A stretch of DNA of 64,000 nucleotides from Planctomycetota bacterium (GTDB taxonomy: Bacteria > Planctomycetota > UBA1135 > UBA2386): NCBI GenBank assembly GCA_046290465.1, contig JBKAGP010000001.1, positions 3,808,001 to 3,872,000 on the forward strand. The letters are read 5' to 3'. Shown here piece after piece: positions 3,767 through 10,846 of the stretch. Positions within the stretch are counted from its first letter, which is position 1. Each line of letters starts with the position of its first letter. The notes beneath the pieces are model-generated. The model worked only from the letters and a program-made list of their open reading frames with translations, was not told the DNA's origin and did no database searches. The position numbers were made by a program, and so were the translations under genes.

Positions 3767-4534
3767 ATGATCCGTTCGACCCTTCCGGTGGCCTTCGCGC
3801 TCGCCGCCGCTGCCTGCAGCGGCACCGAGCGCCACCCGCAGGCCGCCGTCGAGACGACGACCCGGAGGCAGATGATGCGACCCGAAACCGACACCCACGT
3901 ACGGCCGGCGATCGACCTCGAAGCGCCCGCCGCGTTCCAGACCGCCACGTTCGCCCTCGGTTGATTCTGGGGACCCGACTCCCGGTTCGGGAGTCTCGAC
4001 GGCGTGCTGCGCACCCGCGTCGGCTACTGCGGCGGCACCACCGACGCGCCGACCTATCGCAAGATCGGCGACCACGCCGAGACCATCCAGATCGACTTCG
4101 ATCCCAAACGCATCAGCTACGACCGGCTGCTCGAGATCTTCTGGACCACGCACAACCCGTGTCGCACCGCGTGGAGCCGTCAGTACATGTCGGCGATCTT
4201 CTACGCCGACGACGCGCAGCGCGACGCGATCGAACGCACGCGCAAGCAGTTCGTCGGTGAGGACAAGGAGGTCCAGACCGAGGTCCAGCGCCTCGAGCGG
4301 TTCTGGATCGCCGAGGACTATCACCAGAAGTACCGGCTGCGGCACGAACCGGAGCTGCTCGACGAGATCCGCGCGATCTACCCGGACGAACGCGACTTCG
4401 TCGACTCGACCGCGGCGGCGCGGCTCAACGGCTACCTCGACGGGCACGGCGGCCGGCGCCAGCTCGACGCCGAGATCGGCAGGCTGGGCCTGACCGAGAA
4501 GGGCCAGCAGCACCTGCGCAAGCTCTGGCGCTGA
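3767..4534 (+). CDS. msrA: Selenocysteine-containing peptide-methionine (S)-S-oxide reductase, predicted lipoprotein
   Basis: ORFs 3020..3964 and 4004..4534 share a frame and join across TGA 3962-3964: TATFALG-[TGA]-FWGPDSRFGSLDGVLRTRVGYCGG...DHAETIQIDFDP...AEDYHQKY. The TGA sits at the catalytic Cys of GCFWG. Lipobox ALAAAAC. Confidence 0.92.
3977..3995 (+). promoter_or_regulatory. Candidate bacterial SECIS element of msrA
   Basis: GACTCCC-GGTTC-GGGAGTC perfect hairpin starting 12 nt after the in-frame TGA. Confidence 0.8.
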
Positions 4535-4636
4535 CGCGGCGCGGTCCTCAGCAGGCACGACGCGACGACGCGTGCGAGCATGGCCGCCGTCCTCGCCGAT
4601 CGGTGGCCGCCGGCCAGGGCCGGATGCGCCGGCGGG

Positions 4637-5314
4637 CTACAGCGGCTGCGTCGGCGTGCGCTTGAGCAGCCAGGTGCCGAAGTAGAACAGCGGCGTGTCG
4701 GCCAGCGCGACCAGCGCCTTGAACAGCCACAGGTCCAGGACCGTCGACAGGATCTGGTCGGACTCCCAGACGCCCGCGAACAGCACCAGCACCACCAGCA
4801 CCGAGTCGAGCAGCTGTGAGAGCACCGTCGACGCGTTGTTGCGCAGCCAGAGGTGGCGGCCGTTCGTCAGGTCCTTCCAGAAGTGGAACAGGCGAACGTC
4901 GACGAACTGCGCGAACAGGTAGGCCGTCATCGAGGCGGCGATCACGCGCCACGTGTTGGAGAAAGCCTGCCCGTAGGTCTCGTCGCCGACGGGGCTCCCC
5001 TCGATCGCGGGAAACTGTGCCCCGAGCCACAGCGCCAGCAGCGCGAACAGCGACGCGGCGAAGCCGGCCCAGACGACGCGGTTGGCGCGGCGTCGGCCGT
5101 AGAGTTCGGACAGCAGGTCGGTCGCCAGGAACGTGATCGGGTACGGCAGCGCCCCGGCCGACAGCGTGAACACCTTGAAGCCGAGATCGACCGTCAGGAA
5201 CTTGTTGGCGATCAGGTTGCAGGTGACCAGCGACGACAGGAACACCGCCGCCAGCACCAGGAACACGAAGTCGACCGGCCGGTCGCCCGCGTTGTCGAAC
5301 TCGACCGCCGTCAT
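4637..5314 (-). CDS. yhhQ: Queuosine precursor transporter (YhhQ/VUT family)
   Basis: NLIANK, GALPYPITFLATDLLSELYG, AYLFAQFVDV, LWLRNNASTVLSQLLDS, KALVALADTP motifs; multiple TM helices. Confidence 0.88.
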   Translation of the reverse strand: MTAVEFDNAGDRPVDFVFLVLAAVFLSSLVTCNLIANKFLTVDLGFKVFTLSAGALPYPITFLATDLLSELYGRRRANRVVWAGFAASLFALLALWLGAQFPAIEGSPVGDETYGQAFSNTWRVIAASMTAYLFAQFVDVRLFHFWKDLTNGRHLWLRNNASTVLSQLLDSVLVVLVLFAGVWESDQILSTVLDLWLFKALVALADTPLFYFGTWLLKRTPTQPL

Positions 5315-5317
5315 CGC

Positions 5318-5959
5318 CTACTCCCAGCGCAGCGTCTCGATGAACCCGATCACGCCGCCACAGTTGATCTGGTGGCACTGGATGCAGGCGTTGACCACCG
5401 CGTTGTAGGTCTCCTTGTCGGGCGCCTCGTCGAACGCACGCACGGTCGCGAGGTAGCTCTGGGCGCGGCCGTCGTAGCCTTCGTTGCGCTCCTTGGGGTT
5501 GGTCGGCCACGCGCACCGCATCGTGCGATGCGTCGGGAACAGCTTCTCGACCGACTCGCCGTTCTTGACGCGCAGACGGTTCTCCTTCAGTTGATCGACG
5601 AACCGACGCATCAGCACGGCGAGTTCGCTGTCGCCGTTGGGGTTGCGCGGCGACTCGATCAGGTGCCCAGGCGCACCCGGCTTGTTCGGGTCGAGCACCG
5701 TCTGCAGGTTGCAGTCGGAGTCGTCGTAGGCACCCTGCCCGGACGGGTTGTCTGCGGCCCCTCCCTGCTCGGGCCGATCGGCGCCGGCGGCACCGGTCGG
5801 GTTGTCTCCGGATGGGGCCTGACCGGACGGGGTCTGACCGGATTGGGCCTGACCGGATTGGGCCTGACCGGATTGGGCCTGGCCAGATTGCGTGGGCTCG
5901 TCCGCGGTGCACGCGACGAAGAACAGGGAGAGGAACGACAGCGTCAGGAATCGGGACAC
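5318..5959 (-). CDS. Monoheme c-type cytochrome lipoprotein (class II-like, C-terminal CxxCH)
   Basis: GTG 5959 gives MSRFLTLSFLSLFFVAC (lipobox), low-complexity QSGQA linker, and CIQCH near the C-terminus of a helical domain. Confidence 0.65.
   Translation of the reverse strand: MSRFLTLSFLSLFFVACTADEPTQSGQAQSGQAQSGQAQSGQTPSGQAPSGDNPTGAAGADRPEQGGAADNPSGQGAYDDSDCNLQTVLDPNKPGAPGHLIESPRNPNGDSELAVLMRRFVDQLKENRLRVKNGESVEKLFPTHRTMRCAWPTNPKERNEGYDGRAQSYLATVRAFDEAPDKETYNAVVNACIQCHQINCGGVIGFIETLRWE
5808..5890. repeat. 15-bp tandem repeat, 5+ copies (CCGGATTGGGCCTGA), in frame as QSGQA
   Basis: Period-15 copies at 5808, 5823, 5838, 5853, 5868. Confidence 0.9.
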
Positions 5960-6002
5960 GGCAGTCGCGATGCTGGGCCCCGATCGCTCGCCTTGCAAGC
6001 CG

Positions 6003-6172
6003 CTAGCGGGCAAAGCCCCGTCCGCAAGCGTACACGCCGCTTTCGCGATCACGGTTGGCAGCGCGTCCACTACCTGGACGCGCTCCTAGCGGGCAAAGCC
6101 CCGTCCGCAAGCGTACACGCCGCTTCCGCGATCACGGTTGGCAGCGCGTCCACTACCTGGACGCGCTCCTAG
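6003..6172. repeat. 83-bp direct tandem duplication bounded by CTAG, each unit with a perfect 10-bp hairpin
   Basis: CTAG at 6003, 6086, 6169; units differ at one base; AGCGCGTCCA-CTACC-TGGACGCGCT in each. Confidence 0.92.
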
Positions 6173-7164
6173 GGCCAGAACGCGCGCCTGGCGGACGTTC
6201 CGAGCAGCTGCCCGGACGGCGAGACGACCAGCCCCTGGCAGAACCACTCGGTGCCGGGCGGCAGCGACGGCATCGCGATCAGCAGCTGGTCGGCCACGAC
6301 GAAGCTGTCGACCGCGACCAGCTGCGTCAGCGTCGGCGTCCACGCGACCGACGTCGACTGCAGACCGAACGCGAACAGGCCCGGCTGGCCGGTCGGATAC
6401 AGCCGCAGGTCGACGACGTTGTCGCGACGGTGCTCGGCATGGAGCTGCGCCGTCGCGCTGGCCCAGCCGAACCCCTCGATCACCGGCTGCCCCGGAAAGA
6501 ACCGCACCTCGAACGTCAACCCGGCGCCGTGCCCGTCGAACTGGCCGTTGACCGCCGATGCGCCGGCCGTGTTGTCGACCTGCAGCTGGATCGGCACGGG
6601 CTGCGCGCCGATCACCAACGGCAGATCGAGCGCGATCTCCGACAGCGACGGCGAGAACACTTGCGACGACGCGGCGACCTCGACCGACCCGTCGGCGCCG
6701 ACGTCCATCGCGACGTGCGCCGCGCCGATGTCGTACTCGTAGCCCGAGTAGACGACCTGCAGGCGTCCGCGGGTCGGCTGCATCGCCGCCAGCGTCAGCC
6801 GCACCGTCGCCTGCATGCTGGTGCTCACCGCTTCGGCGACCGGACCGGTCGGCGGGCTTGCAACCGCGCTCGCCGACGACTCGATCGCAAACGCGAACGG
6901 CGCGACCTGGTTGGACACCGAGTCGAGCACGGTCACGCTGCTCTGGCCCGAGCTCGCACCGAACGAGGCGGAGTTGACGAACACCGTGCCCGGCGGCACG
7001 ACGCCAGGCTGCGCCGACACGTTGCTGACGACCGCCGCGGCATAGCTGGGATTGACGGTCGCGCTGGCGCTGCCCCCGGTGACCTCGATCGTCATGCTGA
7101 CGTTCTGGGCACAGAGGCTGCCGGCGCACGCGATCGCCACGATCGAATACTGTCTCACCTTCAT
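6169..7164 (-). CDS. Secreted hypothetical protein
   Basis: ATG 7164 MKVRQYSIVAIACAGSLCA-Q signal; S/T/V-rich beta-type sequence; C-terminus MPSLPPGTEWFCQGLVV resembles a short form of the recurring C-terminal module. Confidence 0.75.
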   Translation of the reverse strand: MKVRQYSIVAIACAGSLCAQNVSMTIEVTGGSASATVNPSYAAAVVSNVSAQPGVVPPGTVFVNSASFGASSGQSSVTVLDSVSNQVAPFAFAIESSASAVASPPTGPVAEAVSTSMQATVRLTLAAMQPTRGRLQVVYSGYEYDIGAAHVAMDVGADGSVEVAASSQVFSPSLSEIALDLPLVIGAQPVPIQLQVDNTAGASAVNGQFDGHGAGLTFEVRFFPGQPVIEGFGWASATAQLHAEHRRDNVVDLRLYPTGQPGLFAFGLQSTSVAWTPTLTQLVAVDSFVVADQLLIAMPSLPPGTEWFCQGLVVSPSGQLLGTSARRAFWP

Positions 7165-7242
7165 CGCAGTGGGCGATCGTAGCGCCGTCGGGGAAGACGC
7201 GCCCCCCCCACCCTCAGCACCGACCTCGACCTTGGTGACCCA

Positions 7243-7740
7243 TTGAAAGGAACGCCGACCCACCCCCTGCTGATCCTCTGCGTGGCCCTGTTCGGCCTGC
7301 TGATGATGCTCCCCGACCTGGACCACGCCTGGTCGGGCCTGCCCGATGGCACCTGGCCGACGAGCGAGGCGAGGGTCGTCGCAAGCGAGGTCGAGGCCCA
7401 CAGCAACTACAACAGCGCGACGCACGTCCACTCGACCCACTACATCGCGCGCATCACCTATCGCTACCAGCACGAGGGCACGTCGTACGACTCGTACTGG
7501 TGGAACCCCGGTGGCTCGCGCTCGTTCGCCGACAAGCAGGACGCGCAGGCGGCGGTTGCGGCGAGCCCGGTCGGCGCTTCGCTGACGGTGCACGTCAACC
7601 CCAAGATCCCGTCGCGCGCCGTCGTCGACCCCACGCCGCCGCAGGACTACGGCGCGTGGTTCGTGCGCGGCGGCATCATCATCGGCATCGCGCTGCTGAT
7701 GCTGGTCGTCGAGATCGTGCGCCGCCGCCGCTCGGCGTAG
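7243..7740 (+). CDS. DUF3592-like membrane protein
   Basis: N- and C-terminal TM segments; WPTSEARVVASEV, ITYRYQHEG, PVGASLTVHVNPKIPSRAVV pattern. Confidence 0.75.
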   Translation: MKGTPTHPLLILCVALFGLLMMLPDLDHAWSGLPDGTWPTSEARVVASEVEAHSNYNSATHVHSTHYIARITYRYQHEGTSYDSYWWNPGGSRSFADKQDAQAAVAASPVGASLTVHVNPKIPSRAVVDPTPPQDYGAWFVRGGIIIGIALLMLVVEIVRRRRSA

Positions 7741-7761
7741 CCGCGACGCGCCCGTCCGGCG

Positions 7762-8214
7762 CTACGGCTTGCCGTCGCCGCTGCGCGTCTCCGTCGGCGG
7801 CGACGTCTCGGGCGGCTTGCGCAGCTCCATCGCCTTCTCGAGGCCGACGACCTTGACGAGTTCGGCCCACGAAGGCTCGTACTCGATGTAGACCTCGGTC
7901 GTCACCGGCGTGACCAGCAGCGTCAGCGGCCAGTAGGCGAGCGAGTAGTTGACGGAGCCGGTCTGCACGACCCGCACGCGCGTGCCGTCATGCCGGGCGA
8001 TCGCCGCGGTGGTGACGTCGACCATCTCGTCGAGCGTGATGTTGCCGAGCAGCGGGATGAACACGAGCAGGTTGATGCCGACGTTGGTGGTCGCCTTCAT
8101 CAACACCGGCCGGCCCTCGGGGTCGAGCCGACCGTTCCAGTGGGTGGCGGTGCTGGTGAACGAGCAGGACGTCAGCGCGCCGGCTACGGCTACGGCGAGG
8201 ACACGAAGTCGCAT
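7762..8214 (-). CDS. Hypothetical lipoprotein
   Basis: GGAGG upstream of ATG 8214; MRLRVLAVAVAGALTSC lipobox. Confidence 0.72.
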   Translation of the reverse strand: MRLRVLAVAVAGALTSCSFTSTATHWNGRLDPEGRPVLMKATTNVGINLLVFIPLLGNITLDEMVDVTTAAIARHDGTRVRVVQTGSVNYSLAYWPLTLLVTPVTTEVYIEYEPSWAELVKVVGLEKAMELRKPPETSPPTETRSGDGKP

Positions 8215-8280
8215 GGCTACACCCTCCATGAACGTGGCCGGCGCGGCCAGCATCGCGGCAGGAATCGCCGCGCCTCGCTG

Positions 8281-9294
8281 CTAGGAGCGACCTTCCGTTC
8301 TGCCGACAACGCCGGCCGACATGGCCTGCTGCAGCGCCCGCTGCAGCTCCCGTTCGGCGCGCTCGGGCAGGCCGCGCTGGATCCAGACGACCTCGGCACC
8401 GGCCAGGCCGCGCGGCGCGCGCGGCAGCGGCATCGGCGGCGAGACCGAACGGCCGGCGCTCTGCAGCGCGTAGACCGTCCCGGTCGCCGCGCAGCGCGCC
8501 ACCATCTTGACGCGCAGCAACCGCTCGCCGTCCAGCTGTGTCGCCAGCCGCAGCCACAGCTGCAGGGCATCGATGTCGACCGGAGCGTCGCCGCGCACGC
8601 TGCGGGTGACGGCGGCGCCGTGGTCGACCGCGCCGGACTCACCGGCAGGCATCGTGACCAGCCACCGATGCGCCATGCCGTCGCCACCGAACGGCGCCGC
8701 GAACAGCCAGTCCAGGTCCACGGCACCTTCACCGGACTCGCGCACGTCCCGGCCGCCGAACTGCTCGGCCAGCAGCTGCCGCAGCGGCTCGACGCGCTGC
8801 GGCGCGACGTCGCACCGGGTCAGCAGCACGCGATCCCCGAGGTCGAGCTGGCGGCGGAACTCCGGCTCGGTCTCGAGCAGCCGCTCGCCGCGTTCGCAGT
8901 CGACGACGGCGATCACGCCGCGCGGCGCGACCAGCCGGCCGAGGCGCGCATCGGCGGTCAACGCCCCGAGCATCGGCGCCGGATCGGCGAGCCCCGACGT
9001 CTCCAGCACGATGCGGTCCGGCCCGAGCGCCTGCAACCGCAGCAGCGACTCGTGCAGGTCGTCGCGCAGCGCGCAGCAGATGCAGCCGCCTGGCAGCGTC
9101 AGCACGTCCTCGTCGTAGTCGACCAGCAGGTGGCCGTCGATCGGCAGGTCCGCGACCTCGTTGACGAGCACGGCGATCCGTTCTCCGGTCGCCTCCAGCA
9201 CGCGTCGCAGCAGTGTGGTCTTGCCGCTGCCGAGAAAACCGGTCAGCACGTGCAGCGGCGTCGGCGCGGTCGGGGATCCTGGTTGCGGAGTCAT
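8281..9294 (-). CDS. CobW/COG0523-family metallochaperone GTPase
   Basis: LTGFLGSGKTTLL, GCICC, LETSGLADP, CobW_C-like LLRVK. Confidence 0.9.
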   Translation of the reverse strand: MTPQPGSPTAPTPLHVLTGFLGSGKTTLLRRVLEATGERIAVLVNEVADLPIDGHLLVDYDEDVLTLPGGCICCALRDDLHESLLRLQALGPDRIVLETSGLADPAPMLGALTADARLGRLVAPRGVIAVVDCERGERLLETEPEFRRQLDLGDRVLLTRCDVAPQRVEPLRQLLAEQFGGRDVRESGEGAVDLDWLFAAPFGGDGMAHRWLVTMPAGESGAVDHGAAVTRSVRGDAPVDIDALQLWLRLATQLDGERLLRVKMVARCAATGTVYALQSAGRSVSPPMPLPRAPRGLAGAEVVWIQRGLPERAERELQRALQQAMSAGVVGRTEGRS

Positions 9295-9324
9295 CGCGGC
9301 GGGTTCGAAGCTACCATGCGGGCG

Positions 9325-10191
9325 ATGGCCGAACCGTACCTGATCGACGCGCACGTCCACCTCAACAACTACCACGAGGCGACCCGCAAGCCGACGGTCG
9401 ACAACGTGCGCGAGCTGGTCGAGAAGATGGACGAGATCGGGGTCGACCACGCGATCGTGATCACGTCCTACAAGGTCGACCTGGATCGGCCGAGCGTCGA
9501 GCAGGTGCTCGAGTCCCTCGCCGACAGCCCGCGCGTCACGGTCGTCGAAGGCCTGCGCTGGCGCGGCGAGCAGCGCACCGACCTGTTCACGCTCGAAGAA
9601 CGCATCCGCGACGGTCTCGTGCGCGGCATCAAGCTCTACCCGGGCTACGACCACTATCCGATCAACGACCCGTCGCTCGAGACGGTGTTCCGGATCGCCG
9701 CCAAGCACGACGTGCCGGTGATGATCCACACCGGGGACACCTATTCGAAGACCGCGAAGGTGCGGATGGCGCACCCGCTGCTGGTCGACGACATCGCCGT
9801 CGACTACCCGGACGTTCGCTTCGTCATGTGCCACCTCGGCAACCCCTGGTTCCAGGACGCGGCCGAGGTGCTCTACAAGAACGACAACGTGTTCGCCGAC
9901 ATCTCCGGCCTGACGCTCGGCGAGTTCACCTACGAGTTCGAGCGCTACGTCGCGATGCGGCTGAAGGACATGATCACCTACATGGGCGATCCGGGTAAGC
10001 AGCTGATGTACGGCACCGACTGGCCGCTGGTCCGCATGAAGCCCTACATCAAGCTGCTGCACGAACTCGAGTTCGACGACGAGCAGTTCGAGAACGTCTC
10101 GTGGCGCACCGCGGCCCGGGTGTTCGGGATCACCGAGTCGCAGCTGGCGAAGAGCCGGGCGGCGCGCGGCGGTGGGCCGGGCGCGGGCTGA
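9325..10191 (+). CDS. Amidohydrolase family protein (Amidohydro_2-like)
   Basis: IDAHVH, GIKLYPGY, VMIHTG, CHLGNPW, ADISG, MYGTDWP. Confidence 0.9.
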   Translation: MAEPYLIDAHVHLNNYHEATRKPTVDNVRELVEKMDEIGVDHAIVITSYKVDLDRPSVEQVLESLADSPRVTVVEGLRWRGEQRTDLFTLEERIRDGLVRGIKLYPGYDHYPINDPSLETVFRIAAKHDVPVMIHTGDTYSKTAKVRMAHPLLVDDIAVDYPDVRFVMCHLGNPWFQDAAEVLYKNDNVFADISGLTLGEFTYEFERYVAMRLKDMITYMGDPGKQLMYGTDWPLVRMKPYIKLLHELEFDDEQFENVSWRTAARVFGITESQLAKSRAARGGGPGAG

Positions 10192-10195
10192 CGCA

Positions 10196-10846
10196 TCAGC
10201 GCAGCGAACGGATCGCCGCCAGCGTCTCCTCCGGCTCGGGGCGCCGCGTGTAGTCCGGGTCGGCGTCGATCCGGTGGATGCGGCCGCCGGCCGCGACGAC
10301 GATGCGCGTCGACAGCGGCAACTCCCACGAATCGTCGCCGTTGTGGTCCGGCAGCGAGATGCCGGCACCGAGATAGACCTGGCGCAGGTCCTCGGGCAGC
10401 GTGAACACCAGTCCGAGCTGGCGCGCATACGCGTTGCCGGAGTCACGGAGCACGCGGAACGTCAGGCGATGGCGTTGCCGGACCTCGGCGTTCTTCTCGA
10501 TCGACTGCGGTGAGATCGCGACCAGGTCGGCCCCGAGCTTCTGCAACTCGTCGTGAACCTGCTGCAGAGCGTACAGCTCCGCGTTGCAATAGGGTCACCA
10601 GACGCCGCGGTAGAACGTCACGACCAGCGGCCCGTCACCGTGCAGGTCGACGGCTCGCACGGCGTGGCCGTTCGTGTCGGGCAGCTCGAACGGCGGCAAT
10701 GCCGCGCCGGGTCGGGGCAGGCGGTCGAGGATCCCGGAGTCGCGCAGGTCCTGGGTGGCGCGGTTCATGATCGCCTTGGCTTCGGGCGGCGTGCGCTCGG
10801 CCGAGGCCTGCTTGAGACGGTCCAGTCGTTCTTTCAGAGTCGGCAT
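10196..10846 (-). CDS. Selenocysteine-containing AhpC/TSA peroxiredoxin-like protein (UxxC)
   Basis: ORFs 10595..10846 and 10196..10546 are one frame: GPLVVTFYRGVW-[TGA]-PYCNAELYALQQVHDELQKLGADLVAISPQ. The TGA replaces the first Cys of WCPYC. Confidence 0.9.
10564..10582 (-). promoter_or_regulatory. Candidate bacterial SECIS element of the AhpC/TSA gene
   Basis: GCGGAGC-TGTAC-GCTCTGC hairpin (one G-U pair) starting 12 nt after the in-frame TGA. Confidence 0.78.

Follow-up and report, generated by a model that had tools for sequence, protein, structure and literature searches.

SECIS hairpins of msrA and a Prx-like gene in a Planctomycetota genome, with candidate elements lying farther from the UGA

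The stretch analysed here, called the window below, comprises 64,000 nucleotides (nt) of a Planctomycetota bacterium (GenBank assembly GCA_046290465.1, contig JBKAGP010000001.1, positions 3,808,001 to 3,872,000) and contains two genes, one for a selenocysteine (Sec) type methionine sulfoxide reductase A (msrA) and one for a Prx-like thiol:disulfide oxidoreductase, each with an in-frame TGA followed by a hairpin. Both hairpins are almost certainly selenocysteine insertion sequence (SECIS) elements, and the elements and their proteins are of known kinds. Elsewhere in the genome, hairpins with a G loop at 44, 51, and 77 nt past the TGA are very probably SECIS elements as well. Taken together, the comparative sequence data make it probable that standard elements operate in the window and that the far G loops are reached by folding out the intervening RNA. 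Coordinates are given in Table 1, genome positions being prefixed G000:C1; statements on published systems refer to excerpts of the cited articles.

Hairpins of the msrA and Prx-like genes

The MsrA protein matched TIGR00401 (120.7 bits; cut-off 108.1) and PF01625 (E 1e-41), with a weak match to PF20939 (E 6e-4, under its cut-off), and carries both the PMSR domain and the GUFWG motif given for Sec-MsrA (PMC13188914). Its start codon is uncertain (3758 or 3767). The Prx-like protein has an AhpC-TSA domain (PF00578, E 3e-23) with U at the first CxxC position, Cys homologues of it exist, and no NCBIfam model matched it above cut-off. Both TGAs stand for the catalytic Cys in otherwise intact genes. 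The genome (6.59 Mb, one contig, 70% GC) contains selA, selB, selD, and tRNA-Sec, with an in-frame TGA in selD itself. The Rfam search of the window at the gathering threshold returned 0 matches. The N-terminus of MsrA (window 3767-3820, forward strand) closes in the lipobox-like L-A-A-A-A-C and is likely a lipoprotein-type export signal. An ordinary Cys MsrA is encoded at G000:C1:1198299, less than 10 kb from Sec TlpA and AhpC genes.

The earlier note on this DNA described one identical layout for both genes, which was confirmed: the TGA is followed by a 12-nt spacer, a 7-bp stem, and a 5-nt loop with G-T at positions 2-3, and both stems are, as claimed, unbroken and without the bulged U of E. 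coli. In msrA, the spacer (3965-3976), stem (3977-3983/3989-3995), and loop GGTTC (3984-3988) place the loop start at 19 nt and the loop G (3985) 21 nt past the TGA. In the Prx-like gene, the TGA (10597-10595) and spacer precede a stem (10582-10576/10570-10564) closed by the loop TGTAC (10575-10571; G at 10574), which also starts at 19 nt. The hairpin energies are -11.5 kcal/mol for msrA (-12.7 in the triloop form) and -10.5 kcal/mol for the Prx-like gene. The minimum-energy fold of msrA has 8 bp and a GUU triloop instead of the pentaloop; the pentaloop reading is preferred because orthologues exist with an A..C loop. The folding z-scores (msrA -0.2 and Prx-like -2.4 at 45 nt; -0.8 and -0.85 at 60 nt) were too weak to serve as proof of the hairpins.

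Among 91 family genomes, 25 msrA TGA loci were found, including that of the window; the stem has 7/7 pairs in 23 of them and 6/7 in two, and five canonical Cys MsrA loci, which belong to a different subfamily, form only 1-3 of the 7 pairs. A codon-based scan of GTDB genomes for G-U-F-W-x-P-D-S/A-x-F-G, a pattern that sets some stem and loop bases and leaves the loop G free, gave at least 120 loci. The matches listed come from Bacillota, Chloroflexota, Desulfobacterota, Actinomycetota, Nitrospirota, Acidobacteriota, Myxococcota, Spirochaetota, Verrucomicrobiota, Planctomycetota, and others. Among the 120 listed loci, the loop G is kept in 117, the stem has 7/7 pairs in 42, six in 30, and five or fewer in 48, and the inner three pairs are intact in 107, 120, and 112 loci; covariation was above 500/500 shuffles and every slid control. 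In the same loci, the Arg codon that holds the loop G ends in G in 76/77 cases vs 323/896 (36%) downstream, and the stem Gly is GGG in 107/120 vs 136/707 (19%) downstream, with free variation of the Gly and Pro codons in the spacer. These synonymous choices favour the hairpin bases and back the conservation of the msrA hairpin.

For the Prx-like gene, the 91 family and 401 phylum genomes yielded 22 TGA and 11 Cys homologues, and none was found in five genomes of other phyla. L076 and L077, in which the motif is absent, were excluded. The TGA homologues comprise 16 sequences with the 19-nt hairpin (type A) and six with a GGTCC hairpin at 35 nt (type B). In type A, 7/7 pairs are formed in 15/16 sequences, 98.2% of the cells are paired, two pairs show compensatory changes, and only 1/500 shuffles reaches as high a covariation. 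The loop G is kept in 16/16 and the U in just 5/16, the loop U and C being lost in 11/16, with loops such as TGGAT, TGGCA, and TGGGA. In type B, a near hairpin of 4-5 bp without a G loop is followed by the GGTCC hairpin. The near and far G loops, both inside the published range, are mutually exclusive, and neither hairpin was present in the Cys homologues (0/11; 2-5 of 7 pairs). Two genomes (G272 and G320) each contain types A and B together with one selB. In the tree, type A forms a clade (99/91), and a grouping of A with B was not rejected (p-AU 0.295). The covariation check across relatives that had been proposed therefore turned out in favour of both hairpins being of SECIS type: in each gene, they are conserved with compensatory changes where the TGA is present, and the Cys homologues are without them.

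Table 1. Positions of the selenoprotein genes, putative SECIS hairpins, and Sec machinery (window coordinates unless prefixed G000:C1)
Feature	Position	Strand	Remarks
Sec-type methionine sulfoxide reductase A gene (msrA)	3767..4534	+	255 aa through TGA; TIGR00401, PF01625
msrA in-frame TGA	3962..3964	+	At catalytic Cys of G-U-F-W-G; inferred Sec codon
msrA predicted SECIS hairpin	3977..3995	+	7-bp stem; conservation and covariation
Prx-like (AhpC/TSA, PF00578) UxxC thiol:disulfide oxidoreductase gene	10196..10846	-	216 aa through TGA
Prx-like in-frame TGA	10595..10597	-	At first Cys of W-U-P-Y-C; inferred Sec codon
Prx-like predicted SECIS hairpin	10564..10582	-	7-bp stem with one G.U
selA and selD	G000:C1:1309514-1311945	-	Adjoining
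selB	G000:C1 575791		Away from selA/selD
tRNA-Sec	G000:C1 5914319		Away from selA/selD
TlpA-like UxxC gene	G000:C1:1207500		Far hairpin at 77 nt
ArsC-like gene (NF041106)	G000:C1 3350466		Far hairpin at 51 nt
DsbD-like UxxC domain	G000:C1 4520491		Far hairpin at 44 nt

Hairpins far downstream of the TGA

The first selenoproteome scans, which combined coding potential with a required hairpin at 13-40 nt, gave 35 candidate Sec codons, and a SECIS-blind scan, in which 258 TGAs were judged by eye on their motif, added eight sites missed earlier. The total is 43 candidate Sec codons, distributed over about 37 genes, with the orthologue check covering part of the 43. Three of the SECIS-blind sites have no G-loop hairpin in the published range and one farther out. 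These elements share the stem, the G loop, and the TGA dependence of the bacterial SECIS (bSECIS) consensus; since they lie at 44, 51, and 77 nt, past its 16-37 nt spacing and in the last case at about twice its upper bound, they are classed here provisionally as bSECIS-like, outside the consensus.

The family matches examined were 43 of 62 for the TlpA-like gene, 64 of 85 for the DsbD-like domain, and 43 for the ArsC-like gene, one further match being omitted. All 37 TGA homologues of the TlpA-like gene examined have a 7-bp hairpin with the loop CGTGT at 77 nt, in which every cell is paired and three pairs are doubly changed (compensatory); it was absent from the non-TGA homologues (0/6), and any given near hairpin position is common to at most 2 of the 37. 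In the ArsC-like family, the TGA is present in 43/43 homologues, with the hairpin at 51 nt in 34 and at 21-22 nt in nine, and the loop Arg codon is CGT or CGG in 32/32 and never CGC. In the phyla of L140 (Desulfobacterales) and L130 (Acidobacteriota), the ArsC-like hairpin lies at 18-22 nt in 25/25 and has an unbulged stem, as in the window. In 40 of the 50 TGA homologues of the DsbD-like domain, a 6-bp hairpin lacking a G loop precedes GGTC at 44 nt (one has both); in six, the near hairpin (23 nt) contains CGTGA and the far stem is broken, and four have codon insertions. Neither form was found in the Cys homologues (0/14), which have at least three separate origins on the tree. Within a family, near and far G-loop positions are mutually exclusive.

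In each far family, a helix begins 12-18 nt past the UGA and finishes 0-6 nt before the far stem. In the TGA genes of the three families, these intervening segments fold better than synonymous shuffles (mean z -2.4, -1.7, and -1.3), which is not so in the non-TGA or Cys controls (-0.3 and +0.6). The intervening helices covary; one ArsC pair, for example, is U-A in 12, G-C in 11, and unpaired in nine of 34 sequences.

The conserved principle would be a stretch of about 11-17 unpaired nt, after which structured RNA begins. With the UGA presumably in the A site, WH3-WH4 of SelB would bind the loop G(U) on an unbulged stem and deliver selenocysteine to the UGA of msrA and of the Prx-like gene, the window hairpins being read directly. 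Where the protein sequence disallows a near G loop, a G-less hairpin may take its place and fold out the intervening RNA, which would put the G-loop hairpin almost directly after it (at 35, 44, 51, or 77 nt); within gene families, the G loop would have shifted between the near and far positions. With the intervening mRNA folded out, the codons that follow the active site would no longer need to encode the G loop. On balance, SelB probably reads the G loops at 44, 51, and 77 nt through folded-out mRNA, at the same effective geometry of 12-17 nt and with the G loop hopping between near and far, and a spacer helix is probably needed for the far elements. The 12-nt spacing shared by the window genes likely stems from how much mRNA the ribosome covers, not from a code of the lineage.

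Several observations weigh against this account. With RNAalifold alone, the ArsC spacer helix went unpredicted, and only 3 bp of the outer TlpA helix were obtained; the ArsC helix is 73% paired, and two registers fit the TlpA helix equally. Five of the six non-TGA TlpA controls are without the active-site Cys altogether. The homologues are kin, with the DsbD 23-nt form a single clade and the ArsC 51-nt form of one or two origins, so the near/far switches are few events. One genome (G464, 88% complete) has both Prx-like types, and selB was not found in it. The 60-nt minimum free energy (MFE) structure of the Prx-like gene is a competing fold, and the first 35 Sec candidates were partly picked by a SECIS filter.

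It is possible but rather improbable that SelB is simply held by a flexible tether at the far SECIS hairpins and that the hairpins in between are incidental or merely slow the ribosome. The WHD2-WHD3 hinge of SelB takes up length differences (PMC4605307), TlpA paralogues in this genome with a 24-nt spacer and the loop at 31 nt need no looped-out hairpin, and conservation is weaker in the spacer helices than in those of the SECIS. Against tethering, the intervening segments are under structural selection in TGA genes only, and the near hairpin is retained in DsbD-like and Prx-like genes even without a G loop. We regard it as quite unlikely that the far hairpins arise as a side effect of protein constraint and shared ancestry, are not SECIS elements, and that the UGAs are recoded via a weak, unseen near element. 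The sequences are indeed closely kin, and GC-rich RNA folds so readily that a hairpin of -7.5 kcal/mol or below follows 545/1,973 true stops; yet no near position occurs in more than two of the 37 TlpA homologues, the far stems are maintained by compensatory and synonymous changes, the loop obeys N-G-U/G, as the ArsC Arg codon shows, and Cys revertants have no far stem. Reading of the far G loops through folded-out mRNA is retained as the preferred account. No description of a SECIS beyond 37 nt or of spacer hairpins was found in the full-text literature searched (subscription journals were outside the scope, and a prior report is possible); the excerpts of PMC10945757, PMC7590224, PMC11881835, PMC9499178, and PMC4561486 hold nothing on SECIS spacing.

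Pattern counts and candidate Sec codons

The earlier note proposed a compact, lineage-specific SECIS (UGA, 12 nt, 7 bp, and an NGUNC loop) as a pattern for finding new selenoprotein families, an idea with a precedent in the Epsilonproteobacteria lineage model that led to the DUF466 family (PMC4607533). In the scan it called for, the strict pattern followed 3/35 Sec sites of the first set, 0/1,973 true TGA stops, and 0/2,747 Cys codons (Fisher p 5e-6), the third site being an FG-GAP W-U-C gene. Counted over the whole genome, it occurred after 4/102,607 TGA, 13/326,256 TGC, and 9/197,079 TGG triplets, i.e., at equal rates, so the count by itself gives no enrichment after TGA. As a finder, the pattern is precise, three of its four genome-wide matches being Sec sites, but it covers only 3/43 candidate Sec codons.

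Neither the fixed geometry nor the restriction to one lineage was borne out. The loop starts of the 43 candidates range from 17 to 77 nt, with six at 19 nt and seven at 21 nt; 39/43 are within 16-37 nt, and four lie beyond it (38, 44, 51, and 77 nt). At 27 non-redundant sites of the first, filter-biased set, the best hairpin chosen regardless of loop sequence has G at the second loop position in 27 and G-T in 23, compared with 546 and 84 of 1,725 hairpins after true stops. The exact 12/7/5 geometry is the commonest (3/27), and any exact geometry is shared by 6/351 pairs, so that the coincidence of the window pair is mildly unusual and expected at the mode. The same msrA hairpin is found in many phyla; it is identical in L130, L138, L139, L143, L159, L160, and L167, all from other phyla, occurs as such in Chloroflexota, Acidobacteriota, and Myxococcota, and matches the strict pattern in 36 of the 120 listed GTDB loci.

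A fixed element required by the SelB of this lineage is therefore largely refuted. It could draw on 19 nt being one of the two commonest loop starts, on 12/7/5 being the commonest geometry, and on the absence of matches after true stops, but 40/43 candidate codons do not fit it, the hairpin is shared across phyla, 19-nt and 35-nt forms coexist in one genome with one selB, and the Prx-like orthologue loops listed above depart from it. It is scarcely credible that translation truly ends at the TGAs, that they are pseudogene lesions, or that they encode Trp, with hairpins following by chance: the rate of the strict pattern after TGA does equal the background, but the TGA is conserved at the position of the catalytic Cys in 25 msrA and 22 Prx-like homologues, and the genome has the full Sec machinery and 1,973 ordinary TGA stops.

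The claim that A/T-ending codons cluster at the hairpins found no support in the two genes alone (4/24 vs 18/224, p 0.24) and held over the 35 Sec sites (85/420 vs 111/1,045, p 2.5e-6). Of the codons named, only AGT and GCT lie inside the stems; GGA and TAT are in the spacer and variable among homologues.

The families represented among the candidates include SelD, AhpC, BCP, SelW, AhpD, rhodanese, two deiodinase-like, ArsC-like, and SelL-like proteins, a VPGU/MsrA fusion, a zinc-ribbon DG protein, and several TlpA and HMA proteins. Many are supported by NCBIfam models, and about a dozen rest on coding potential and motif. The rejected candidates included 2372610, 4229277, 5225378, 5828470, 1508527, 4099714, 3159321, 2368252, 2177676, 4533750, and 5060360, which are gene junctions, antisense frames, or sites without family support.

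Two FG-GAP-like exported proteins (G000:C1:3756620, forward; 5536341, reverse) contain W-U-C, with the loop AGTTC starting at 19 nt; they matched no selenoprotein model and are not in Table 1 of PMC13188914 as excerpted. Three neighbouring TGA pairs, all on the reverse strand, seemingly have one common hairpin each: 4052100/4052097 (20/17 nt), 1364230/1364227 (21/18 nt), and 4117601/4117589 (38/26 nt). Candidate selenoproteins with no NCBIfam match are a two-Sec HMA-like protein with C-S-G-I-G-G-U (G000:C1:1515907-1516467, forward), a DsbD-N-like protein with Y-I-U-I-C (G000:C1:3354830-3356464, reverse), and a small lipoprotein-like UxxC protein (G000:C1:5453186-5453608, reverse).

Known systems and significance

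In general, the stem of a SECIS has 6-8 bp, and its loop G lies about 20 nt past the UGA (PMC4605307, PMC13188914 Fig. 2A). The consensus bSECIS (Zhang and Gladyshev 2005, via PMC13188914 and PMC10778597) has a loop of 3-9 nt, a stem of 4-16 bp, a G at loop position 1 or 2 that usually precedes U or G, and an MFE of -7.5 kcal/mol or below; its spacing is 16-37 nt for most elements, and a subset fails the model (PMC13188914). The window elements, each a single hairpin in the coding region, agree with it in loop, stem, G, spacing, and MFE, and the host context also corresponds, with SelA, SelB, SelD, and tRNA-Sec present and the TGAs aligned to Cys. The genome differs from the consensus in usually leaving the first loop base unpaired (N-G-U/G-N-N) and in having 4/43 sites past 37 nt. 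Both Sec-MsrA and Prx-like UxxC proteins belong to selenoprotein families listed in Table 1 of PMC13188914; the Prx-like protein here differs in falling below all NCBIfam cut-offs, and the MsrA in its likely export signal.

In the ribosome, about 13 nt link the A site to the hairpin, and the site where WH3-WH4 of SelB binds the SECIS loop is the mRNA entry channel (PMC4605307). The E. coli fdhF SECIS requires a bulged U17 and has G23-U24 in the loop (PMC8659212). Compared with fdhF (NC_000913.3), the spacer is 12 instead of 11 nt and the loop G is at +24 instead of +23 from the U of the UGA; the window stems have no counterpart of U17, and the fdhF loop GGTC is also the loop of several elements in the genome. 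The epsilonproteobacterial element, as described in PMC4607533, is likewise compact, with a 5/6-bp hairpin and an invariant loop G, and all its instances lie near the UGA, with no distal ones in that description.

The closest structural relative of the SelB C-terminal domain is the Moorella thermoacetica SelB WH3-4/SECIS complex (PDB 1WSU, 2UWM, 1LVA). The Moorella motifs PPSFKE/SRKYVLPLLEY align with PPTLDE/SRKFLIPLLEY here, at low identity (domain E 2e-6). The Moorella SECIS is unbulged and has a five-base GGU loop. E. coli SelB has EPWWVRD in place of PPTLDE, and its Trp forms a pocket for the bulged base; 2PLY (PPWVKE) was reportedly made to mimic this pocket.

The value of the window hairpins lies only in allowing two split selenoprotein genes to be annotated correctly. 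Searches for bacterial SECIS elements have the 16-37 nt rule built in, and in a benchmark bSECISearch missed 13% of known selenoprotein genes, which was put down to atypical elements that were not specified (PMC12013277). Far SECIS elements preceded by a folded-out segment would form a concrete class of this sort and, if true, would explain part of the genes missed by SECIS-based finders. In the recombinant production of selenoproteins, the coding constraint of the SECIS on the residues after the active site is a recognised difficulty (PMC10778597); a far SECIS would loosen this constraint right after the active site, and engineers could then set the SECIS away from it.

Two further features of the window were noted. 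In the intergenic region 6003-6171, a sequence of about 86 bp occurs twice in direct orientation, the copies being nearly identical. Low-complexity Q-A/T-Q/P-S-G repeats (5815-5890, reverse strand) are present in a small protein that has a CxxCH-like motif at its C-terminus and matches no Pfam family; its gene adjoins a queuosine-precursor transporter gene (TIGR00697).

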